NCBI GenBank assembly: GCA_020632075.1
Contig: JACKGH010000001.1
Coordinates: forward strand, 259,216 to 323,215
DNA: 64,000 nt
DNA from: Candidatus Nomurabacteria bacterium
GTDB lineage: Bacteria; Patescibacteriota; Minisyncoccia; Phycocordibacterales; UBA918
Direction of reading: 5' to 3'
Shown one piece after another: positions 1-26,736 of this stretch. The stretch's first letter is position 1. Each line of letters opens with the position of its first letter. The position numbers and the translations under genes were made by a program. The notes under the pieces are model-generated. The model worked only from the letters and a program-made list of their open reading frames with translations, had not been told where the DNA came from and did not search any database.

Positions 1-515
1 CCATCTCACCAAAGTTCAAGGAAACCGTAGAAGCAGCAAACAAGGCAAGTATTAGCTTGCGAAAAGGAAACACTCTCATTGATCCTAAAAAGCTTGAGCG
101 GGCAAGTGTTAGTGAAAAAGAGATGGAAGCCTTCAGAAGTGAGCGGACTGGAGACACTGCACCACATCGTGATTACATGATCAAAAATCAATCTCTGCTC
201 AACTCAATAGAGATGCTTTGTTTCATGGTGAATACAAACTTGGCTGATGAAGAGATGGTCTTCAATTGTGTCGGAGGTGTCACGACGCACCTCATCAGCA
301 TGTTTAACATGGACATCCGACTTTCACGAAGCAGCGATTTTTACGGAGTAAAAACATACCAAAATATTACCAAGGTGTACGATTTGTGGCACTGTCGAAT
401 CGGACGTCTGAGAAAAGAAGAAGAGATCAATAAGCACCAAACCAAAGTAAGGACTCTGTATGGCGAAATGCTTGAGTTATCCAGACCTACAACACCGCCA
501 GTTGGCACAACTTAA
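1..515 (+). CDS. hypothetical protein, 5' end truncated by the window edge (frame is open to position 3)
   Basis: ORF continues upstream of window; no recognisable family; possible Rx6H (HEPN-like) motif RTGDTAPH, weak. Confidence 0.4.
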   Translation, partial: ISPKFKETVEAANKASISLRKGNTLIDPKKLERASVSEKEMEAFRSERTGDTAPHRDYMIKNQSLLNSIEMLCFMVNTNLADEEMVFNCVGGVTTHLISMFNMDIRLSRSSDFYGVKTYQNITKVYDLWHCRIGRLRKEEEINKHQTKVRTLYGEMLELSRPTTPPVGTT

Positions 516-571
516 ATCCATGATACAATCATTACATATGGTCTTGTACTAAATTCTTCACAATAGTAAAA

Positions 572-598
572 GAGTCGCCACATGGCGGCTTTTTTGCT
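572..598 (+). terminator. rho-independent terminator
   Basis: hairpin agtcgcca/tggcggct followed by TTTTTT. Confidence 0.6.
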
Positions 599-643
599 TA
601 ATTAATGTGGAATATAGATACTAAGTACGCTAGTATTTGCTGC

Positions 644-1261
644 ATGGAGTATTTGATATTCGACTTTGATGGGGTACTCGGCAACACCTGGAACGCAGTC
701 ATACACGGTATTGTTGCAAGTGGTAGAGAACCAGACACTGAATCTGCAATTGAAAATGCAAGGCGCTACGCCAGCAAAAGGCCCTTTCATTCTAAAGAAC
801 TCACTCTTTCCGACGAGAAGTTAGCAGCAGAATACGAATGGATCAGGTCGTTTGGCAAAATCGTGCACGATCACGGCTTCACACTCTTTGATGATCTTGT
901 TCAGGAAATACTAAAACTTGAAGATGCAAAGATCGCAGTCGTCTCAAGCGGATCACAAAACTACGTACTGCCAGCACTCCAGACTACAAAATTACAACCA
1001 ACCCACATCCTCGCCTTTGAAGACCACCACTCCAAGGAAGAGAAGGTCGCATTGGTCTGCCGTGACTGGGGAATTCCAATTGAAGACGTTTACTATTTCA
1101 CTGACACCCTAGCTGATGTCTATGAACTAAAGGATCTGATTGCACCAGATAAACTCATCGGGGTGAGCTGGGGCTACTGCGCTAAAGAACAGCTTTTGAC
1201 TGAGCTGCCAGAGAACAACATTCTCAATACTCCGCAAGACCTACCGAGCCTTTTCACGTAG
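644..1261 (+). CDS. HAD-superfamily hydrolase
   Basis: N-terminal motif LIFDFDGVLGNT (DxDG[VT]); alternative ATG at 605; TAGTAT -10-like 8 nt before the ATG at 644. Confidence 0.6.
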   Translation: MEYLIFDFDGVLGNTWNAVIHGIVASGREPDTESAIENARRYASKRPFHSKELTLSDEKLAAEYEWIRSFGKIVHDHGFTLFDDLVQEILKLEDAKIAVVSSGSQNYVLPALQTTKLQPTHILAFEDHHSKEEKVALVCRDWGIPIEDVYYFTDTLADVYELKDLIAPDKLIGVSWGYCAKEQLLTELPENNILNTPQDLPSLFT

Positions 1262-1331
1262 ATTTACAGAACAGACATTAAGTGGCAGAATAACCCTTAT
1301 ATTACTTGGGTAAACGGGAGTTATTTTGCGT

Positions 1332-4106
1332 ATGCATAAAAAGTTTGATCATAAGGAGATTGAGAAGAAATGGCAGGAGAAATGGCAGACTGACGGACTG
1401 TATGACACTGGCGAGCGTGACAACAGTAAAGAGAAAGAATACGTACTCGTGGAGTGGCCATACCCGTCAGGCAATCTCCACATTGGGCACTGGTACGCCT
1501 TTGCAGTACCAGATATCTACGTGCGCTACAAGCGCATGGTCGGCACGCAAGTACTGTACCCAATGGGCTTTGATGCCTTTGGTCTCCCAGCCGAAAATGC
1601 CGCGATCAAGCGCAACCTCAACCCACGCGAGTGGACCGAGAGCAATATCGAATACATGCGAGGCCAGCTCGCCAGCATGGGTAATGCGTTCTCCTGGGAC
1701 AAGACCTGCAACTCAACCGACCCCGAATACTACAAGTGGACACAGTGGATGTTCACTAAATTCTTTGAGAATAACATCGCGTACCGCGGCGAAGGTGTGG
1801 TGAACTGGTGTCCAGGCTGTAACACCGTGATCGCCAATGAGCAAGTACAAGCTGACGGCACTTGCGAGCGCTGTGATAGCGTGATCGAAAAGAAAAAGAT
1901 GCCACAGTGGATGCTTCGCATCACTGATTTTGCTGATGAGTTGATCGACGACCTCGCGCCACTCAACTGGCCTGAACATATAAAAGACGCTCAGCGCAAC
2001 TGGATCGGTCGCTCAGAGGGTGCTGAGATCGATTTTGAACTATCTGTCGGAGAGAAGGTGACTGTGTTTACGACGCGTCCTGATACACTCTTTGGTGCGA
2101 CCTACCTGGTACTCGCGCCAGAGCATGAGCTTATAGAAAAATACAAAGATTCGATCATAAACTGGGATGAAGTTGTCGTGTACGCAAAAGAGGCAAAACA
2201 AAAAGCAGAGCAAGATCGCCTCGATAACACCAAAGAAAAGACTGGGGTAAAGCTCGATGGTATTACCGCAACCAATCCAGCCAACGGCGAAGAAATCCCA
2301 GTCTACATCGCTGACTACGTGTTAGCTGGGTACGGTACTGGCGCTATCATGGCCGTACCAGCGCACGATGAGCGCGATCATGCGTTCGCGAAGAAGTATA
2401 GGATCCAGATCAAGTCAGTGGTCACTGAAAAGCCGCTCACACACGCTGGAGCACTACTTGAAGCAAAAGGGAAGCCCGGTACATTTCTCTTCCAGCTCCG
2501 GAAAAAGGACGCAGCAAAGCTGCCAGGAAAGTTGAGTTTCTTTGGTGGCAAGATAGAAAGTGAGGAAACACCACTTGCAGCCACCAAACGCGAACTCGAA
2601 GAAGAACTCGAGTTCAGTTTTACAGACGACGCAGTAAAGGCAACGTACTGCTTTGAATCTGAGATCCCTGGCATGCAAGGCTGGGTCGCGCATATTACTG
2701 ACGTCGATGAGTCATCACTCGTGCTTCATGAAGGCGATGAGATCGTCACACTTACCATAGATGAAGCGATCGAAGACCCACGATCCTCAGCCGGATTAGT
2801 ACAAGTGATGCGTATTTTGAAGGAGCAGAAGATCCGCACTGAGTACGGCGTCTTGGTAGATTCTGGAGAGTTTACCGGTCTTACCTCAGAAGAAGCAAAA
2901 GTAGCCATTACAGAAAAAGTTAGCGGCAAACTCACCAACACCTACCGTCTCCGTGACTGGTCGATCGGTCGTCAGCGCTACTGGGGCGTACCGATACCGA
3001 TCGTGTACGATCCGGAAGGAAGGGCACATCCAATTGCAGAGGAGCACTTGCCGTGGACACTACCAGAGGATGTTGACTTTAAGCCGACAGGGGTGGCGCC
3101 GCTTGCGAAGAGCGAAGCTCTCAAGCGGCGCGTCACCGAGATCTTTGGCGAAGGTTGGACACCAGAAGTAGAAACCATGGATACATTCGTGGATTCTTCG
3201 TGGTACTACCTCCGTTATATCGATAATAAGAACGATGCCGCATTCTCAAGCAAAGAAGCGCAGCAGACCTGGCTCCCGATCGATCTGTACTTCGGTGGTG
3301 CAGAGCATACCACCATGCACTTGTTGTACTCGCGTTTCTGGCAGAAGGCGCTGAAGCGGCTCGGCCTTGCGGAGCACGCCGAGCCGTACGCTCGCCGTAT
3401 CAATCGTGGACTTATCCTTGGTCCAGACGGCAACAAGATGAGTAAGAGCAAGGGAAATGTCATCGACCCTGACGAACAAGTAGAGCGAGTCGGTGCAGAC
3501 ACGGTAAAGATGTATCTCGCTTTTATGGGGCCATATGGGGAGACCGCGAACTACCCGTGGGACATGGGCGGCATTGCTGGTCTCCGCCGCTTCCTCGAGC
3601 GTGTATACGGACTAAGCGAACACATTACTGAAAATGAACCGGCCGCGATCACCTCATTGCTTCACAAGACAATCAAAAAAGTCGATGACGACATCAAGAA
3701 CTTCAAGTTCAACACTGCCATCAGCGCTATGATGATCTTGGTCAACGACATCGAGAAGCAGGGGATTGGAAAAGAATCGTACGAGCTGTTCCTTCGTATG
3801 CTGGCGCCGTTTGCACCGCATGTAACCGAAGAGCTCTGGCAGGCGGCTGGAAATTCGTCGAGTATTCACTCGACTGAATTTCCAGCCTTCGACCCCGACC
3901 TCGCCAAAGACAAGGAGGTTACCATCGGGGTGCAGATCAATGGTAAGGTCCGCGGCGATATCACCGTTTCACCAGAGGCGACCGAGGTAGAAGTGATGGC
4001 AACAGTCGCTGAAAACCATTCACTCCAGGCACGTATCAAAGACGCACAGATCCGCAAGATCATCTACGTTCCTGGCCGCATATTGAACCTTGTGGTTTCT
4101 GAGTAG
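1332..4106 (+). CDS. leuS: leucyl-tRNA synthetase with an inserted Nudix-like domain
   Basis: HIGH (HIGHWYAF), TTRPDT editing motif, KMSKS; ORF-track start at 1326 is TTG, ATG at 1332 gives MHKKFDHKEIEKKWQ. Confidence 0.95.
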   Translation: MHKKFDHKEIEKKWQEKWQTDGLYDTGERDNSKEKEYVLVEWPYPSGNLHIGHWYAFAVPDIYVRYKRMVGTQVLYPMGFDAFGLPAENAAIKRNLNPREWTESNIEYMRGQLASMGNAFSWDKTCNSTDPEYYKWTQWMFTKFFENNIAYRGEGVVNWCPGCNTVIANEQVQADGTCERCDSVIEKKKMPQWMLRITDFADELIDDLAPLNWPEHIKDAQRNWIGRSEGAEIDFELSVGEKVTVFTTRPDTLFGATYLVLAPEHELIEKYKDSIINWDEVVVYAKEAKQKAEQDRLDNTKEKTGVKLDGITATNPANGEEIPVYIADYVLAGYGTGAIMAVPAHDERDHAFAKKYRIQIKSVVTEKPLTHAGALLEAKGKPGTFLFQLRKKDAAKLPGKLSFFGGKIESEETPLAATKRELEEELEFSFTDDAVKATYCFESEIPGMQGWVAHITDVDESSLVLHEGDEIVTLTIDEAIEDPRSSAGLVQVMRILKEQKIRTEYGVLVDSGEFTGLTSEEAKVAITEKVSGKLTNTYRLRDWSIGRQRYWGVPIPIVYDPEGRAHPIAEEHLPWTLPEDVDFKPTGVAPLAKSEALKRRVTEIFGEGWTPEVETMDTFVDSSWYYLRYIDNKNDAAFSSKEAQQTWLPIDLYFGGAEHTTMHLLYSRFWQKALKRLGLAEHAEPYARRINRGLILGPDGNKMSKSKGNVIDPDEQVERVGADTVKMYLAFMGPYGETANYPWDMGGIAGLRRFLERVYGLSEHITENEPAAITSLLHKTIKKVDDDIKNFKFNTAISAMMILVNDIEKQGIGKESYELFLRMLAPFAPHVTEELWQAAGNSSSIHSTEFPAFDPDLAKDKEVTIGVQINGKVRGDITVSPEATEVEVMATVAENHSLQARIKDAQIRKIIYVPGRILNLVVSE

Positions 4107-4208: not shown

Positions 4209-5234
4209 ATGATTTCATTTAAACCAAAACAGATTACAAAAGCCCTTTTGGAGGTATTGCCTGAACGAGCACGTGACGTGCTTGAGAAGCGCTACGGCCT
4301 TGGAAAGGACGGTGATACATTCACCCTCGAAGCGATCGGACAGTCGTACGGAATCACCCGTGAACGCGTTCGCCAGATCGAAAACTACGGCATTCAGTCT
4401 ATTCAAAAGTCTGAGGTCTATAAGAAGCACTACGAGCTCTTCATTGAGCTCCAGAAGCTGATCGATCAGCTTGGTGGTGGTCTCATTGCAGAGCAGGTCT
4501 TGCTCGACGAACTGTCTAGCGACGCTGCCACTCGCAACCACTTGTACTTCCTCCTTGTCGTCGGAGATCCGTTCTACAAGAGCAAGGAAAACCCAAACTA
4601 CACACACCGGTGGTACACCGAGCGTAAAGTAGCTGATGTGGTTGAAAAGGCTCTTCAGAATGTCTACAAGAGCCTCAATCGAGACGAACTTGTCTCTGAA
4701 CATGAAATCATCAATCGTTTCCGTGCTGAGCTTGCTGATGTAGCAGATGCTCACAACGAAGACGTGCTCAAGCGTTGGCTCCAGATCTCAAAGCAGATCA
4801 GCAGCAACCCACTCGGCGACTGGGGTCCAGCTGACAGTCCAAATGTTCGCGTTAAGGGTATTCGCGACTACGCCTATCTCGCCGTGAAGCGCCATGGTTC
4901 ACCAATGCACTTCCGTGAGGTAGCCTCAGCTATTAATGAACTCTTTGGGCACAAGGCACACGTTGCTACCACCCATAACGAGCTCATCAAGGATTCTCGT
5001 TTTGTCCTCGTTGGTCGCGGTCTCTACGCACTCACTGAGTGGGGATACACCGCCGGAGTCGTTAAGGACGTACTCCGCGAGATCCTCGCTACCGAAGGTC
5101 CACTCTCTCGAGAGGAGATCATCGATAAGGTCCGCAAGGAACGTTACGTGAAAGACAATACTATTCTCGTAAACCTCCAGGACACCAACCTCTTCAAGAA
5201 ATTGGCAAACGGTACCTACGCACTTGCTGAGTAA
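4209..5234 (+). CDS. DNA-binding protein with N-terminal sigma-70 region 4 HTH and C-terminal HARE-HTH-like winged helix
   Basis: LPERARDVLEKRYGLG...TLEAIGQSYGITRERVRQIE resembles sigma70 r4; C-terminal GSPMHFREVASAINELFG...GRGLYALTEWG. Confidence 0.6.
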   Translation: MISFKPKQITKALLEVLPERARDVLEKRYGLGKDGDTFTLEAIGQSYGITRERVRQIENYGIQSIQKSEVYKKHYELFIELQKLIDQLGGGLIAEQVLLDELSSDAATRNHLYFLLVVGDPFYKSKENPNYTHRWYTERKVADVVEKALQNVYKSLNRDELVSEHEIINRFRAELADVADAHNEDVLKRWLQISKQISSNPLGDWGPADSPNVRVKGIRDYAYLAVKRHGSPMHFREVASAINELFGHKAHVATTHNELIKDSRFVLVGRGLYALTEWGYTAGVVKDVLREILATEGPLSREEIIDKVRKERYVKDNTILVNLQDTNLFKKLANGTYALAE

Positions 5235-5305: not shown

Positions 5306-6652
5306 ATGGGAGGAATCATCAAAACGATATTCGGTGCCATCATGATACCGCTCTTTTTGTTTTTAGCGCTCAGCTTCATGTTCTTTGTCGTGTCCATGAC
5401 CGGCACAGACCTTGAACCGATTCTCAGTATCATCGTTGCCACCAGCCCAATCTGGCTCCCGTACACACTTTTCTACATTACCTTCGAAATGTGGATGTGG
5501 TCTGTCGGTGAGAAATTCAAATACCAAAATGGACGGAGCACCCTCCGCATCAAACTCCCACAGGAAGTACTCAAATCTCCAGAAGCGATGGAAAGTGTTC
5601 TTACCCAGGTACACAACGTCAACAGTCCGGATAACTACATGCAAACATACCTGGACGGCAAGCGACCACTCACACTCAGTCTTGAACTTGTATCGATCGG
5701 TGGTGATGTACGCTTTTACATCAACTGCCCGACCAAGAAGATCAAGAATGCGCTTGAAGCACAGCTCTATGCACAGTATCCAGGAATTGAAGTCACCGAA
5801 GAATTGGTCGACTACGCAGCTGAGGTGGTATGGGATAAAGACAAGTGGGAACTGATCTCTTTCCACATCCTCAAGAAGAGCAAGACCAGAGATGATGATG
5901 TCTTTCCGATCAAAACATATATCGATTACGGTCTCGATAAGCAACCAAAGGAGGAGCTCAAGTTTGAACCAATGGCACCGATCCTCGAACACCTGGGGAG
6001 CGCCAAGCCACATGAGCGTGTCTGGATCCAGATACTCTGTACACCACACGCAAAGAAAACTCTTAAAACAGGTAGTTTAAGCAAGCAAGATACCTGGGAA
6101 AAAAGCGCGGCTAAGAAGATCAATGAAATGATGGGGCGCGATGACAAGCGCATGAGTGTCGCTGGTGAAGAAACTGACACGCGCCCAATGCTCACTATGG
6201 GTGAGCGAGATGTGATCGCATCGATCGAGCGAAATACCAGCAAGTACGCGTATTCGGTGGGCATTCGTGCCATGTACATCACTCAAACAGGCAAATTCAA
6301 TCCTGACATGATAAGTCCGATGCTTCGTGGTTTCGGACAATTCGACATGATCGGACGAGCCAACCTTGGTCCAATGTGGCGCACAGACTTCGACTACAAT
6401 TTCTTCCAAGATTTCACTGGGCAGCGCAAGATCCGCATGAAGCGCAATGAACTCGAGTACTACAAGGCGCGCTACTATACCGAAGGTGACAAAAAGAACC
6501 TGGTTGACCGTGAGCGCATTATGTCGGTAGAGGAGCTGGCAACCATTTACCATATCCCTGGAACCTCAGTTATCACCCCAGGTGTTGGGCGAGTCGAAAA
6601 TACTCGCCGCGAAGCACCAGCCAATCTACCGATCGGCGAGTTGCCAACTTAG
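5306..6652 (+). CDS. hypothetical membrane-anchored protein (2 N-terminal TM helices, about 380 aa soluble domain)
   Basis: ORF with hydrophobic N-terminus; no Walker motifs; TACAAT 9 nt before ATG. Confidence 0.55.
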   Translation: MGGIIKTIFGAIMIPLFLFLALSFMFFVVSMTGTDLEPILSIIVATSPIWLPYTLFYITFEMWMWSVGEKFKYQNGRSTLRIKLPQEVLKSPEAMESVLTQVHNVNSPDNYMQTYLDGKRPLTLSLELVSIGGDVRFYINCPTKKIKNALEAQLYAQYPGIEVTEELVDYAAEVVWDKDKWELISFHILKKSKTRDDDVFPIKTYIDYGLDKQPKEELKFEPMAPILEHLGSAKPHERVWIQILCTPHAKKTLKTGSLSKQDTWEKSAAKKINEMMGRDDKRMSVAGEETDTRPMLTMGERDVIASIERNTSKYAYSVGIRAMYITQTGKFNPDMISPMLRGFGQFDMIGRANLGPMWRTDFDYNFFQDFTGQRKIRMKRNELEYYKARYYTEGDKKNLVDRERIMSVEELATIYHIPGTSVITPGVGRVENTRREAPANLPIGELPT

Positions 6653-21642: not shown

Positions 21643-21726
21643 TCAAAGCACCAAAAAAAGACTCGCCAGACAGCGTTTTTTTGGTATAGTTTACGAAATT
21701 TAAAAATCGATTTAACCATTGTTACT

Positions 21727-23682
21727 ATGACCGGGAACGATATTCGTAAAAAATACTTAGCTTTTATGGCCGAAAAGGGCCACGCTGTTGTTCCGTCGGC
21801 GGCCTTGGTGCCAGACAATGACCCAACCACGCTCTTTACCGGGAGCGGTATGCAGCCAATGGTGCCGTATTTGCTTGGTGAAACACACCCAAAGGGAGTC
21901 CGGATCGCTGACTCGCAGAAGTGTTTTCGTGCTGAAGACATTGAAGAAGTGGGAGACAATCGTCACACCACATTCTTCGAGATGCTCGGTAACTGGTCTT
22001 TTGGTGACTACTTTAAGGAAGAGCAGGTAAACTGGATGTTTGACTTCCTGGTGGATGAACTCGGACTCGACCCAAACAAGCTCTATATCACGGTCTTTGG
22101 CGGGGATGAAGCGAGCGGTGTCCCGATGGACGAAGACGCACCAGCCTACTGGCAGAAGCGTTTTACTGAGAAGGGCATCGATGCTGGTATTGCACACGTC
22201 GGTAGCGAGGAAGACGGCTATGAACGCGGTATGAAGGAGGGTGAGCGTATCTTCTACTACAACGCCAAAAAGAACTGGTGGAGTCGCGCTGGCGTACCTC
22301 AAAACATGCCCGTCGGTGAGCCTGGTGGTCCAGACTCTGAGATGTTCTACGACTTCGGTACTCCACACGATCCAAAGTGGGGCAAACACTGCCACCCAAA
22401 CTGTGATTGTGGCCGCTTCATGGAGATCGGCAACAACGTCTTCATGCAGTACGTGAAGAAGGGAGAAGGGAAGTTTGAAGAACTCAAGAACCGCAACATC
22501 GACTTCGGCGGCGGTCTTGAGCGTGTCGCCGCAGCGGTAAATGACGAGCCTGATGTGTTTAAGGTCGATCTCCTTTGGACCGTGGTTGAGCACATTGAAG
22601 AGCTCACCGGAAAGAAATACCAAGACAACAAAGAAGCCTTCAGGGTTATTACCGACCATATTCGCGGCGCGGTCTTTATGATCGGCGACGGCATTTTGCC
22701 TGGCAACAGTGAGCAGGGCTACTTTGTGCGCCGCTTGCTTCGTCGTGCAGTACGCTACGCAGACATCCTTGAGATTCCGGCTGGGAAGTTCCCAAACCTC
22801 GCTGAAAGTGTGATCGGAAAATACGAAGAGCACTACACCAATCTCGCCGAAAAGCGCGAAGCGATCAAAGACGCTATCGCCACAGAAGAAGCACAGTTCC
22901 GCAAGACACTTGAGAATGGACTCAAGCAGTTCAATAAGATCGAGCTGCAGATCCATATCACAAAGGAAGAACTCGACAAAGCAAAGGAGACGGGCGAGAA
23001 GATTGTCGGTACAAAGGAGAACACCAAAAAGGCGATCTCAGCTAAAAATGCCTTTGATCTCTTTACGACGTTTGGTTTCCCGATCGAGCTGACCGAAGAA
23101 ATTGCTGCAGAAAAAGGACTTGTCGTAGATCGCGCTGGCTTTGAGAAGCTGATGGAAGAACATCGTGAAAAGTCACGGGCTGGTTCGGAGCAGAAGTTTA
23201 AGGGTGGACTGGCAGATCAAGGTGAAAAAACCGTGCAGTACCACACCACGACCCACCTCATGCTGGCGGCACTGCGCAACATCCTTGGCGATCATGTGCA
23301 TCAAGCCGGCAGCAACATCACCGGCGAACGTCTCCGCTACGACTTCACACACCCTGAGAAAGTAGAGAAGGAAACACTTGAGAAAGTAGAAGGGTGGGTG
23401 AATCATGCGATCCAAACTGGTGGTAAGGTCACAATTGAAACAATGAAACGTGACGACGCTGAAAAAGATCCTTCAATTGAAGGTAGTTTCTGGGACCGCT
23501 ATCCTGATGAAGTAAAGGTGTATGTCGTGACCGGAAATGACGGTACCGTATTCTCGAAAGAACTTTGCGGCGGACCCCACGTACAGGAGCTCGCTGACAT
23601 CAAAGGCACTTTCAAGATCCAGAAGGAAGAATCCTCCTCTGCTGGGGTCCGCCGCATCAAGGCGGTGTTGGTAGATGAGTAG
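21727..23682 (+). CDS. alaS: alanyl-tRNA synthetase, short form lacking the C-terminal C-Ala domain
   Basis: class II core, editing HTTTHLMLAAL...H motif; 651 aa. Confidence 0.9.
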   Translation: MTGNDIRKKYLAFMAEKGHAVVPSAALVPDNDPTTLFTGSGMQPMVPYLLGETHPKGVRIADSQKCFRAEDIEEVGDNRHTTFFEMLGNWSFGDYFKEEQVNWMFDFLVDELGLDPNKLYITVFGGDEASGVPMDEDAPAYWQKRFTEKGIDAGIAHVGSEEDGYERGMKEGERIFYYNAKKNWWSRAGVPQNMPVGEPGGPDSEMFYDFGTPHDPKWGKHCHPNCDCGRFMEIGNNVFMQYVKKGEGKFEELKNRNIDFGGGLERVAAAVNDEPDVFKVDLLWTVVEHIEELTGKKYQDNKEAFRVITDHIRGAVFMIGDGILPGNSEQGYFVRRLLRRAVRYADILEIPAGKFPNLAESVIGKYEEHYTNLAEKREAIKDAIATEEAQFRKTLENGLKQFNKIELQIHITKEELDKAKETGEKIVGTKENTKKAISAKNAFDLFTTFGFPIELTEEIAAEKGLVVDRAGFEKLMEEHREKSRAGSEQKFKGGLADQGEKTVQYHTTTHLMLAALRNILGDHVHQAGSNITGERLRYDFTHPEKVEKETLEKVEGWVNHAIQTGGKVTIETMKRDDAEKDPSIEGSFWDRYPDEVKVYVVTGNDGTVFSKELCGGPHVQELADIKGTFKIQKEESSSAGVRRIKAVLVDE

Positions 23683-24142: not shown

Positions 24143-25375
24143 ATGTCATTTTTTGGGCTTGGGAAACCAAGTGATCGTTACGGCGTTATCATAGACGTTG
24201 GTTCTGGTAGTGTGCTGACAGCAATCGTGCACTCTAGTCCAAAACAAAAACACCCACAGATCGTTTGGTCGCAACGTGAACACGCACCACTGCGCAATGT
24301 CGACTCTCTCGAACAGAGTGCCAAGGCGGTCATGACCGCACTCGTAAACTCAAGCATGCTCCTTGATACTGAAGGTCGTACTGCGCTGCGAGAGTACAAT
24401 CCCGACGCAAAACTCACCGAGCTCCAATGCAGCATCTCTGCACCGTGGTCATACACCGTCACAAAAACCATCAACTACAAGCAAGAAAAACCGTTTACGA
24501 TCACTGAGGAGCTTATCGAAGAACTCACTCATTCACTCCAACAAAAGATCGATAATGAGATCCGAGAAAATGAGGCAATGCAAAACCTAGGTCTGCAAGT
24601 GATCACCAGGGCCACCATGGACAGCCTTTCAAACGGCTACCGAGTAGAGGATCCGATCGGGGAAGAAGCCAAGGAGTTCTCGATCTCTCAGGGTAGTGTG
24701 GTTGCGCAAAACTACCTTATCGATGCGCTTGATGAAATGCGCGATAAACTTTTCCCAACAACAACTGGGAAAAAGCTCTCTTTCATTCTCATGCTGTTCA
24801 GTGTTACTCGCGAGCTACTACCGAAAACATACGATATCTGCCTTGTCGACGTAACCTACGAGGCGACCGAGATCGGAGTAGTTCGTGATGGCACACTGTC
24901 GTACTGCACCCACACACCATTTGGCTCATTTTCACTAGCCCGCGAGATCTCAGCGATCACAAATGTGCCACTACACGAAGCATTTGGCTACCTCCACACT
25001 GACAAGCCTCTGGCGTTTATGGAAGCATTATCTGCGGAGCAGAGGAAAGGTGTGGACGCAGCGATTGAAGCTTACATTGAAAAACTCAGCGCACTCTTTA
25101 GAGAAACGGGTGACGCACTCTCCATTCCGAAGAAGATCTCACTACATGCCGATCTGAAAAGCGAGCCGCTTTTTACTGGCTTGATCATGAAGGCAGCGAA
25201 AAGAAACCTTAAATCTGAACCAATAATTACCCCGATCTCGGGCAAAATCATTGAAATGACCTACGCTGAATCAACCAAGAAGACCACTCAGGTAGTTACC
25301 GGAGACACCGCACTCCTTCTCTCGGCCCAGTTTTTCCACAAACGCAAGCCGCGTGAGACTTTCGAGTACTTCTAA
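24143..25375 (+). CDS. actin-fold ATPase (FtsA/PilM-like)
   Basis: phosphate-1 IIDVGSGSV and phosphate-2 VDVTYEATEIGVV motifs; about 410 aa. Confidence 0.55.
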   Translation: MSFFGLGKPSDRYGVIIDVGSGSVLTAIVHSSPKQKHPQIVWSQREHAPLRNVDSLEQSAKAVMTALVNSSMLLDTEGRTALREYNPDAKLTELQCSISAPWSYTVTKTINYKQEKPFTITEELIEELTHSLQQKIDNEIRENEAMQNLGLQVITRATMDSLSNGYRVEDPIGEEAKEFSISQGSVVAQNYLIDALDEMRDKLFPTTTGKKLSFILMLFSVTRELLPKTYDICLVDVTYEATEIGVVRDGTLSYCTHTPFGSFSLAREISAITNVPLHEAFGYLHTDKPLAFMEALSAEQRKGVDAAIEAYIEKLSALFRETGDALSIPKKISLHADLKSEPLFTGLIMKAAKRNLKSEPIITPISGKIIEMTYAESTKKTTQVVTGDTALLLSAQFFHKRKPRETFEYF

Positions 25376-25398
25376 GCGCTATACTGTACAATATACGT

Positions 25399-26736
25399 AT
25401 GACACAAAAATGGAACCTACAGGACATTCGTCCAGCAGAACCACGGAAGCGTCGACCCGCACCACGGCCGATGAACCAAGAAGAACGACCAAAAGCGCCA
25501 CCGATGGAAAAGCGCGAGAATATTCCTGAAATTGTTATTGAAGACGGACGAAAGAATTCGTCAAAGCGACTTTGGATATCTATTCTTATCTTTGCAGTGA
25601 TCGTTGGAGGTGCTGTCGCCCTCAGTGCCATGATGGCCAAGACCGAGATAACCGTCTACCCAGAACACCGCGAACCAAACGTCAGTGCAGAATTCACTGC
25701 CTATCCTGACAAGCGAGACAACGCACTGAGTTATGAGATCTTGACCCTAGAATCAACCAGCGAAAGCCAAGTGAAAGCAACCGGTCAAGTACAGGTTGAA
25801 GAGCAAGCCACCGGCATGATCGAGATCAAAAAGACAACTCCTGGCGCCGAGCGACTCATCAAAAATACTCGTTTCCGCACCCCCGACGGCTTGGTCTACC
25901 GTATCCAAGAATCAGTAGTGGTTCCAGGTTCAGTCACTAGCGAAACCGGTGCAAATATGCCAGGCACCATCCAAGCGGAAGTATTTGCTGACGACGTTGG
26001 CGAAGAATACAACGTTCCAGCTGGCACAACCTTTGATATTCCAGGCTTTGAAGAAAATGGTCTTATGGATCTCTACAACACCATTTCAGCCACTGCAGCT
26101 ACAGATCTCTCCGGCGGCTTCAGCGGACCGCAGTTTCAGATAGATGAAGGCGAGCTACAAACTGCACGACAAAAACTCCAAGTAGACCTTCGCAACACAC
26201 TCTTAGCACGAATCGAAAATGAACGCCCAGCAGATTTCATCGCGTTTCCAGGGGCAGTTGCTGTTACGTACAATCAACTTCCGGCTGTTGAGTACGGCAA
26301 TGAACTCGTCACTATTCGAGAGCAAGCCATCCTTCAGATCCCGCTGTTCCAAGCGACGGAGTTCGGTTCATTTCTTGCTAAAGAAACAATCCCAACCTAC
26401 GAAGGAGATCCGGTCCGTGTTGAAGACCCATCTGTACTAACATTCATGTATACCTCAGCAACCACAAGCTCGAGCGTCATCGCGAATGAGCCTTCGCTCA
26501 CTTTTAAACTCACTGGTAAGCCGCTCCTCATCTGGGAATACGACCCTGAAATGATGGCCGAAAACCTGGCTGGATTGCCAAAGACAGCAATTCACAATGC
26601 AACCCGTGATTATCCTGGAATTATTGGAGCACGCGTACACATGACCCCATTCTGGAAGCGCGCTTTCCCAGAAGACCCGACTGAAATAATCGTGATCGAA
26701 GAATTGAAGGATCCAGCTGAGCTCACAACTGAATAA
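25399..26736 (+). CDS. bitopic membrane protein with large extracytoplasmic domain
   Basis: P/R/K-rich N-terminus, single TM, about 370 aa ectodomain; TACAAT 6 nt before ATG. Confidence 0.55.
   Translation: MTQKWNLQDIRPAEPRKRRPAPRPMNQEERPKAPPMEKRENIPEIVIEDGRKNSSKRLWISILIFAVIVGGAVALSAMMAKTEITVYPEHREPNVSAEFTAYPDKRDNALSYEILTLESTSESQVKATGQVQVEEQATGMIEIKKTTPGAERLIKNTRFRTPDGLVYRIQESVVVPGSVTSETGANMPGTIQAEVFADDVGEEYNVPAGTTFDIPGFEENGLMDLYNTISATAATDLSGGFSGPQFQIDEGELQTARQKLQVDLRNTLLARIENERPADFIAFPGAVAVTYNQLPAVEYGNELVTIREQAILQIPLFQATEFGSFLAKETIPTYEGDPVRVEDPSVLTFMYTSATTSSSVIANEPSLTFKLTGKPLLIWEYDPEMMAENLAGLPKTAIHNATRDYPGIIGARVHMTPFWKRAFPEDPTEIIVIEELKDPAELTTE

Follow-up and report, generated by a model that had tools for sequence, protein, structure and literature searches.

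The stretch of DNA analysed here (the window) comprises 64,000 nucleotides of a Candidatus Nomurabacteria bacterium (assembly GCA_020632075.1, contig JACKGH010000001.1, positions 259,216 to 323,215 of the forward strand) and contains, near its start, a leuS gene for leucyl-tRNA synthetase (LeuRS) with a large insert in the CP1 editing domain. Judged from sequence and structural models, this insert is a complete Nudix domain, in frame and with a live-looking active site. A first-pass annotation made from the letters alone had proposed ~140 extra residues in LeuRS at 2400-2865, a Nudix box at ~2542..2610 with E in place of its terminal G, and a continuous reading frame with intact HIGH, TTRPDT and KMSKS motifs. 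Each of these held, and the boundaries can now be given precisely. The features of the gene are:

1326..4106, + strand: leuS in the open reading frame (ORF) list, encoding a LeuRS of 926 residues from a TTG start; host of the nested domain
1479..1490, + strand: HIGH class I signature, residues 52-55
1995..2438, + strand: N-terminal part of the CP1 editing domain up to the insertion point, residues 224-371 (PF13603, 201 bits)
2070..2087, + strand: TTRPDT, the Thr-rich editing-site motif, residues 249-254
2352..2378, + strand: AVPAHDERD, with the editing-site Asp D348
2382..2423, + strand: left conserved LeuRS flank AFAKKYRIQIKSVV, residues 353-366
2424..2846, + strand: nested Nudix cassette of class A (the window type), residues 367-507, 141 residues including short linkers
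2493..2501, + strand: Q390-x-R392 upstream motif, invariant in 23 nested class A copies
2544..2615, + strand: Nudix box GGKIESEETPLAATKRELEEELEF, residues 407-430
2727..2735, + strand: H468-E469-G470 downstream motif, aligning with HEH of NudG (2rrk)
2847..2882, + strand: right conserved LeuRS flank GVLVDSGEFTGL, residues 508-519, where CP1 resumes
3435..3449, + strand: KMSKS class I signature, residues 704-708
3648..3983, + strand: anticodon-binding domain PF08264, residues 775-886

The leuS product scores 903.3 bits against the TIGR00396 (leuS_bact) equivalog profile hidden Markov model (HMM; cut-off 548.4), matches the Pfam families tRNA-synt_1, tRNA-synt_1_2 (PF13603) and Anticodon_1, and is colinear with Thermus thermophilus LeuRS over the full length (653 bits). 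NCBI places the start at the ATG at 1332, giving 924 residues. An identical protein (P0001, 100% identity) is encoded on a 1,004,653-bp contig of a Candidatus Kaiserbacteria metagenome-assembled genome (MAG), where NCBI names it 'class I tRNA ligase family protein'. Insert or no insert, all 55 relatives compared keep HIGH, TTRPDT, D348 and KMSKS; residues without any variation include H52, G54 and H55 of the first motif, T249, T250, R251, D253 and T254 of the second, and V344 to D348, R350 and D351 around the editing-site Asp. The leucine-specific domain, found in the majority of bacterial LeuRS though not in every one, is absent before KMSKS: in the alignment, residues 700 to 705 of the query correspond to 580 to 638 of the T. 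thermophilus enzyme, so that ~57 residues are reduced to a short GPDGN turn (window 3414..3449, residues 697-708, ILGPDGNKMSKS). This domain is not a defining feature, since Mycoplasma mobile LeuRS is described with a tetrapeptide (GKDG) in its place (PMC3643597). Overall, the gene is predicted to encode a working LeuRS with an intact CP1 proofreading domain.

The interval between AFAKKYRIQIKSVV and GVLVDSGEFTGL holds 141 residues in the window protein (junctions VV/TEKP and RTEY/GVL), against ~11 in T. thermophilus LeuRS (1H3N residues 365 to 377) and 3-61, with a mode of 11, in the closest relatives that have no insert. We take the CP1 editing domain of 1H3N to span residues ~224-417, which would place the insertion site inside CP1. 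Pfam NUDIX (PF00293) matches the isolated insert at 34.2 bits (E=3e-8) and the full protein at 30.7 bits, both above the gathering cut-off of 21.1. AlphaFold2 modelled the insert alone with a predicted local distance difference test score (pLDDT) of 94.6 and a predicted template-modelling score (pTM) of 0.87. In the full-length model (mean pLDDT 84.3, pTM 0.73) residues ~370-500 reach pLDDT 90-97, and the insert has the same secondary-structure elements as when modelled alone. A Foldseek search of the PDB with the insert returned 490 matches at E<=1e-3; the best 50 of the 490 are all Nudix proteins, with template-modelling (TM) scores of 0.52-0.75, and the top matches have probability 1.00 and TM 0.65-0.75, about 0.7. 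A profile built from the 23 class A copies retrieved, among solved structures, MutT (7syc at 4e-12, 1mut at 3e-9), NudG/ORF135 (2rrk at 2e-11) and NudI. The Nudix fold suspected in the first-pass annotation is thus borne out by PF00293, by the MutT, NudG and NudI profile matches, and by the AlphaFold2 model with its Foldseek matches.

The Nudix box reads G-x5-E-x7-R-E-L-x-E-E-x-[E]-F, with E429 in place of the terminal G and F430 as its last residue, and the catalytic set is complete (G407, E414, R422, E423, E426, E427 and E469). Although the 23 nested class A copies are just 26-46% identical to the window insert, Q24, R26, F40, G41, R56, E57, E60, E61, E103 and G104 of the insert (Q390, R392, F406, G407, R422, E423, E426, E427, E469 and G470 of the protein) are invariant among them, the glutamates of the REx2EE motif included; E48 (E414) is conserved in >=90% and H102 (H468) in 96%. 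By our own residue count, the HEG motif presumably corresponds to K97-E98-G99 of Escherichia coli MutT, in which E98 is a metal ligand. The resemblance to MutT has limits: the MutT equivalogs TIGR00586 and NF008044 scored below their cut-offs (30.1 vs 97.9 and 31.0 vs 148 bits), and we regard the domain, from these profile scores, as MutT-like but no MutT orthologue. BdRppH, diadenosine tetraphosphate (Ap4A) hydrolases and NadM-Nudix are also among the sequence or fold matches of the insert. The Ap4A hydrolases (3i7u, 4mpo) rank 41-48 in the fold search and lie outside the top sequence matches, and fold alone assigns no substrate.

The terminal glutamate of the box might have been taken for a lesion. 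We scanned species-representative genomes with the degenerate DNA pattern FGG-x13-RE[LIV]xEE[LIV]E, which gave >=120 matches, the taxon counts being lower bounds. Among the matches listed, the majority are free-standing proteins of 140-200 residues from Alphaproteobacteria, Chloroflexi, groups of the candidate phyla radiation (CPR) and even archaea. At positions outside the search pattern, 85 free-standing relatives keep Q24 in 94%, R26 in 96%, E48 in 98%, E103 in 95% and G104 in 94% of cases. The G-to-E change is the hallmark of a large natural, mainly free-standing Nudix subfamily, in which it is general, and no sign of degeneration. The window insert is 37-49% identical to LeuRS-nested copies vs 32-43% to free-standing ones. 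An exhaustive search of representatives with the class A profile likewise returned free-standing proteins of 130-150 residues (E~1e-31), along with other host proteins; it listed no nested LeuRS, these having presumably been collapsed onto insert-less representatives at 50% clustering.

To survey the loop across LeuRS, we took the 120 closest LeuRS from a full-length search (63-84% identity over the best local alignment), whose NCBI labels include Kaiserbacteria, Nomurabacteria, Pacebacteria, Paceibacterota and Parcubacteria. The insert by itself gave no matches in a word-indexed homologue search, and inserts were delimited by column slicing of the full LeuRS alignment. A large insert occupies this loop in 61 of the 120, and about half of the 120 carry a Nudix domain there, of at least six sub-types, so that the same insertion, which the first-pass annotation had suggested looking for in orthologues, is common. 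The contents of the slot are:

class A, the window type: n=23, box ending in EELE
classes B1-B5: n=34, canonical EExG boxes
class B6: n=3 (P0080, P0106, P0116), degenerate box with R to A and E to Q
non-Nudix insert: P0092, nucleotidyltransferase matches, all sub-threshold
short filler: n=59, 3-61 residues

Identity between inserts of different classes averages 23%. Nested Nudix domains are found in frame in >60 independent assemblies (NCBI, JGI, ENA and Logan), and this recurrence excludes chance as the origin of the architecture. The degenerate boxes of class B6, together with the G-to-D change in the box of P0032, suggest that catalytic function was lost or changed in a few lineages. P0092 (L006, 6001..8856) carries in the same loop a 167-residue non-Nudix insert with a GG...SDVDFF motif and sub-threshold matches to DUF2204, Aminoglyc_resit and DUF6036, and its LeuRS core is 92-93% identical to those of Nudix-bearing and empty-slot relatives.

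The class of insert is scattered across the LeuRS core tree, and the slot can differ between very close relatives. Core identity is 97.3% between P0023 (B1) and P0031 (no insert), 96.1% between P0047 (B1) and P0085 (B3), 95.1% between P0051 (B2) and P0067 (none), 94.7% between P0108 (B2) and P0112 (none), and 91.9% between P0092 (nucleotidyltransferase-like) and P0094 (none). The slot states of the last pair coexist in one metagenome, ERZ28573545. Across 253 pairs, divergence of the class A insert is uncorrelated with divergence of the core (r = -0.02).

Comparison of DNA covered two pairs of loci. The gene order DUF5671 - leuS - sigma70-like - DUF8128 - YceG - MnmA is common to L001 and L002, which are 94.8% and 97.1% identical in nucleotides on the two sides of the slot, which measures 537 nt in one and 87 nt in the other. 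Identity is perfect for ~60 nt up to the KKFNLP codons and returns at the SEEAK codons; the LINSGEF segment between these points, which both genes possess, has diverged too. L004 (B1) and L005 (B3), from two MAGs, have flanks 94.1% and 97.4% identical around 511 vs 522 nt that cannot be aligned. In relatives, the left breakpoint lies within the AFAKKYRIQIKSVV flank and the right one in GVLVDSGEFTGL or just downstream at SEEAK. In all 12 of 12 close pairs with discordant slots, the 20-residue flanks exceed the remaining protein ~2-9x in divergence (Fisher p = 8e-6 to 0.04), whereas five control pairs with the same slot state show no flank excess (p = 0.16-1); stretches of flank have been imported together with the cassette.

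These observations bear on how cassettes move. No boundary repeats, whether target-site duplications or terminal inverted repeats, were found at the insert. Insertion of a transposon or insertion sequence was rejected on this ground and because the junctions represent replacement with diverged flanks and no clean insertion. The divergence of the flanks and the breakpoints within conserved flanks make allelic replacement between leuS genes the simplest reading. The pattern fits a cassette swap by homologous recombination between leuS alleles, in which the conserved flanks would serve as homology arms. The GC content of the insert equals that of the rest of the gene, so there is no sign of recent foreign origin. 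Seen across these alignments, the loop of this essential gene behaves like a slot for exchangeable cassettes.

Selection on a cassette could be gauged from the closest same-class pair, L129 and L130 of class B2, as class A of the window has no close pair. The ratio of nonsynonymous to synonymous substitution rates (dN/dS) is 0.062 for the insert and 0.045 and 0.037 for two segments of the LeuRS core, values that are approximate because dS is 0.9-1.2 and near saturation. Given the similar ratios, the cassette is maintained as a protein with a strictness close to that seen for the essential enzyme around it, although the contents of the slot can be replaced.

Nesting extends to a second site in LeuRS and to other proteins. 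A Ham1/ITPase domain (PF01725, 50 bits) lies between GAEIDF and TTRPDT in P0058 and P0098, and P0098 carries both this Ham1 domain and a class A Nudix in one LeuRS. The corresponding position in the window is at residues ~232-248 (nt ~2019..2069), between GAEIDF and VTVFTTRPDT at the start of the editing domain. Among more distant LeuRS, P0126 has a Nudix at the GAEIDF/TTRPDT site, P0133 has a Nudix and an alpha/beta-hydrolase, and P0134 (Candidatus Portnoybacteria, OGZ35000.1, UniProt A0A1G2FBJ3) also combines a Nudix with an alpha/beta-hydrolase, with a near-threshold match to Ham1 (21.9 bits vs cut-off 22.5). About 15 or more Saccharibacteria (TM7) genomes encode an isoleucyl-tRNA synthetase (IleRS) of 1,300-1,700 residues in which a low-molecular-weight (LMW) phosphatase and a class A-like Nudix directly precede the Thr-rich editing motif WTTTPWTLP; the LMW phosphatase/ArsC-like domain has the motif CNANAARS. 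These IleRS loci are:

L032, 820..4986, - strand: Saccharibacteria IleRS
L037, 2600..7705, - strand: Saccharibacteria IleRS
about 13 further Saccharibacteria IleRS loci, among them L017, L043, L061, L075, L089, L099, L102, L106, L107, L118 and L128

In the L037 protein, two additional insertions carry the motifs GHSLGG and THSLGA and resemble alpha/beta-hydrolases by motif. Such Nudix nesting is not restricted to synthetases, since the Mur ligase P0199 (569 residues, on a 34,720-bp Logan contig) has a Nudix nested at 247-371, between its middle and C-terminal domains. In a Candidatus Gracilibacteria MAG (L030, 2079..5771, + strand), LeuRS appears under table 11 as a run of four ORFs on one strand, the Nudix ORF being placed centrally; probably a single LeuRS gene with a nested Nudix is broken here by in-frame UGA codons, in a lineage that we take to read UGA as Gly (code 25).

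Free-standing relatives are seldom neighbours of leuS. None of the loci of ~90 free-standing matches (up to 8 kb) contains a LeuRS-like ORF, and a free-standing Nudix beside leuS was rejected as a general rule; L129 and L130 alone show it. In both, a 143-residue class A-like Nudix gene at 468..899 stands directly upstream of a leuS that itself nests a B2 Nudix. The box of this neighbour is partly degenerate (KRALAEEIKF, with RE changed to RA, and HEG to LDDN), and its dN/dS is 0.062. A similar Nudix neighbour lies ~2.4 kb from the TM7 IleRS in L128.

With moderate confidence we favour an autonomous Nudix enzyme tethered to a LeuRS that works as usual. The insert would be an independently folding 'house-cleaning' pyrophosphohydrolase akin to MutT, NudG and NudI, nested in one CP1 loop. 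Its activity is most likely Mg2+-dependent hydrolysis of a nucleoside triphosphate or a nucleoside diphosphate linked to another moiety (NDP-X), as in its free-living relatives, because every metal-binding and catalytic residue of those relatives is kept. This second enzyme would merely be tethered to and co-expressed with LeuRS and would take no part in aminoacylation or editing. The slot would be filled, in near-identical leuS genes, by various Nudix sub-types, a nucleotidyltransferase-like domain or short filler, and cassettes would pass from one leuS allele to another by homologous recombination within the strongly conserved flanks. Autonomy is favoured because near-identical LeuRS lack the domain or carry a very different Nudix, because free-standing relatives keep the same residues, and because the same kind of domain occurs in other hosts and at other sites.

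Several observations weigh against this account. Nesting recurs specifically in the CP1 domains of LeuRS (two sites) and IleRS, both class Ia synthetases; several of the cassettes (Nudix, Ham1, nucleotidyltransferase-like) are directed at nucleotides; and L129 and L130 have a class A-like Nudix gene directly upstream of leuS. These three points may be hints that Nudix and synthetase are functionally linked. Moreover, the NCBIfam equivalog cut-offs for MutT, NudG and NudI were all unreached, for which reason no substrate is assigned, and a simple house-cleaning role leaves the combination of strong purifying selection and rapid turnover unexplained. The three hints also speak for a Nudix coupled to the synthetase, which might clear Ap4A/Ap3A from Leu-AMP, or adenylate-mimicking antibiotics, or act on a tRNA or RNA end held by CP1. 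The Nudix neighbour of the TM7 IleRS, the presence of BdRppH and Ap4A hydrolases among the matches, and the precedent of NCBIfam NF040702, an IleRS with a GNAT domain as accessory enzyme domain, point the same way. We consider such coupling rather unlikely: LeuRS cores that are 95-97% identical do without the domain or carry a very different Nudix (23% identity between classes), which is also why the action on Ap4A or mis-activated adenylates raised in the first-pass annotation is not favoured. Free-standing relatives conserve the same residues, which argues against LeuRS-specific remodelling; a Nudix from the same profile search sits in a Mur ligase; and the alpha/beta-hydrolase and LMW phosphatase cassettes are non-nucleotide enzymes. 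Aminoacyl-adenylates have no diphosphate bond of the kind that Nudix enzymes cleave, and the neighbour arrangement is confined to two lineages, with none among the ~90 free-standing loci.

Alternatively, the cassettes may be cargo for conflict or defence: variable hydrolases of the nucleotide pool or of small molecules, destroying for instance phage-modified dNTPs or toxins, held under diversifying, frequency-dependent selection and parked in an essential, constitutively expressed and conserved gene, where strains could readily exchange them. Variation in presence and type at strain level despite strong purifying selection is typical of flexible or defence genes. The insert matches the PADLOC candidate PDC-S07 (E=4.4e-11, 40.6 bits) better than Pfam NUDIX, classes B1 and B2 match it too, two slot states occur in one metagenome, and several sites and enzyme types are involved. 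PDC-S07, however, is a candidate model without a curated cut-off, and Nudix models cross-hit each other; B3 has no PDC-S07 match and the nucleotidyltransferase-like and Ham1 cassettes no PADLOC match at all; and the called neighbours, whose synteny is conserved, include no phage-related genes or defence neighbourhood. This explanation seems unlikely to us. A catalytically dead appendage of the editing domain, structural or RNA-binding, would accord with the degenerate boxes of class B6, P0032 and the L129 neighbour (R to A with E to Q, G to D, and RE to RA, respectively), but class A retains its catalytic residues in copies as divergent as those described above, in the pattern of free-standing enzymes, and we hold a pseudo-enzyme to be very improbable. 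Beyond the insert lying in frame in an essential gene, nothing speaks for an assembly chimera, an intein or a self-splicing intron, and we give these practically no credence, given the number of independent assemblies with the domain in frame and an insert GC content like that of the rest of the gene; the dN/dS of 0.06 on the class B2 insert further argues that such inserts are selected as protein and are not removable elements. An intein was rejected because there is no Cys/Ser at the N-junction, no HN[CST] at the C-junction and no Hint or endonuclease domain, Pfam showing NUDIX alone, and a self-splicing intron or RNA element because 2200..3050 has no Rfam match at E<=1.

Returning to the autonomous tethered enzyme, a wider and more tentative extension is that in CPR bacteria the surface loops in the CP1 domains of LeuRS and IleRS, both class Ia synthetases, serve as sites where small enzymes from a flexible pool become integrated, the pool comprising several Nudix types, Ham1, a nucleotidyltransferase-like domain, alpha/beta-hydrolases and LMW phosphatase. 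These would spread from strain to strain and across species without mobile-element machinery, the conserved host providing homology arms and guaranteed expression, with turnover perhaps driven by conflict with phages or toxins.

The surroundings of leuS are stable. Downstream synteny is kept in all relatives examined: leuS, a 341-residue sigma70_r4/HARE-HTH protein, DUF8128, YceG and MnmA. In the window, conserved leuS-downstream genes and other observations are as follows:

4209..5234, + strand: conserved leuS-downstream gene
5306..6652, + strand: conserved leuS-downstream gene
605..1261, + strand: upstream of leuS, a 218-residue ORF with a DxDGVL motif, HAD-like by eye, where relatives have DUF5671
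21643..23679, + strand: compact alanyl-tRNA synthetase of 679 residues, with catalytic domain and tRNA_SAD and no nested domain; no further C-terminal domain by Pfam at E<=1e-4
25357..26733, + strand: 459-residue ORF with no Pfam match at E<=1e-4

The 64-kb window contains no second LeuRS and no Nudix outside leuS, and no nested domain was seen in its 10 largest ORFs besides leuS, among them three further synthetases of plain architecture.

Comparison with known systems sharpens what is particular here. MutT, NudG (ORF135) and NudI (7syc, 1mut, 2rrk, 6dt3) share with the insert a fold of ~130 residues, the G, E, R-E and E-E of the box, the downstream Glu and an upstream R-rich strand motif, and are its best profile matches (E=4e-12 to 3e-9); they are only ~20-25% identical, have Gly where the insert has the terminal Glu, and are free-standing where the insert is nested. 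The free-standing EELE-box subfamily (140-200 residues, many phyla) has the same box ending, QxR and HEG, but is encoded by separate genes. Canonical LeuRS (T. thermophilus 1H3N/2BYT; E. coli 4AQ7/4ARC) is colinear with the window protein and shares HIGH, KMSKS, the Thr-rich motif and the editing Asp; the window LeuRS differs in having ~133 residues in place of the ~11 between T. thermophilus residues 365 and 377 and in having no leucine-specific domain. NadM-Nudix (NMN adenylyltransferase/ADP-ribose pyrophosphatase, 2qjo, 2qjt; NMN, nicotinamide mononucleotide) likewise joins a Nudix covalently to a nucleotide-handling enzyme, but as an end-to-end fusion with shared pathway logic, whereas the window Nudix is nested in a loop, polymorphic and exchangeable. 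Inteins resemble the insert in lying in frame in a conserved essential gene, in presence and absence among close relatives and in spreading via conserved flanks; unlike them, the insert has no splicing residues or homing endonuclease and is an enzyme under purifying selection, presumably kept in the mature protein.

A 2026 survey of domain insertions counted no case in which the LeuRS editing domain hosts another domain and classed it as insertion-exclusive (PMC13114784); the window protein contradicts this, since here the editing domain acts as host. A 2017 survey of the Nudix clan makes no mention of tRNA, synthetase or ligase. We found no description of a Nudix in a synthetase, of multiple cassette types or of strain-level exchange in the open-access literature, to which the search was confined. 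The first-pass annotation had supposed the fusion undescribed, which stands as regards published papers; the architecture itself is common among Patescibacteria/CPR, and public database entries go back to 2016 or earlier (OGZ35000.1). What is new is recognition and interpretation, the sequences having long been public and the parts (LeuRS and a MutT-like Nudix) being known.

Few proteins are as conserved as the aminoacyl-tRNA synthetases, which serve as routine phylogenetic markers and drug targets. The locus offers a natural example of a putative functional enzyme nested in the proofreading domain of one of them, LeuRS. Accessory content that varies between strains can lie concealed in the core genes of ultra-small bacteria: pangenome and marker-gene analyses counting leuS as one orthologue would miss the cassettes, and the NCBI pipeline PGAP already downgrades the names of such genes. 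The exchange suggests a transfer route without integrase or transposase. If the cassettes are defence or detoxification modules, they would provide a new place to seek such functions in organisms where few are known. Saccharibacteria, in which related IleRS architectures occur, have cultured representatives, which would make the idea experimentally tractable. If CP1 slots prove general, there would be an unrecognised accessory genome inside core genes.

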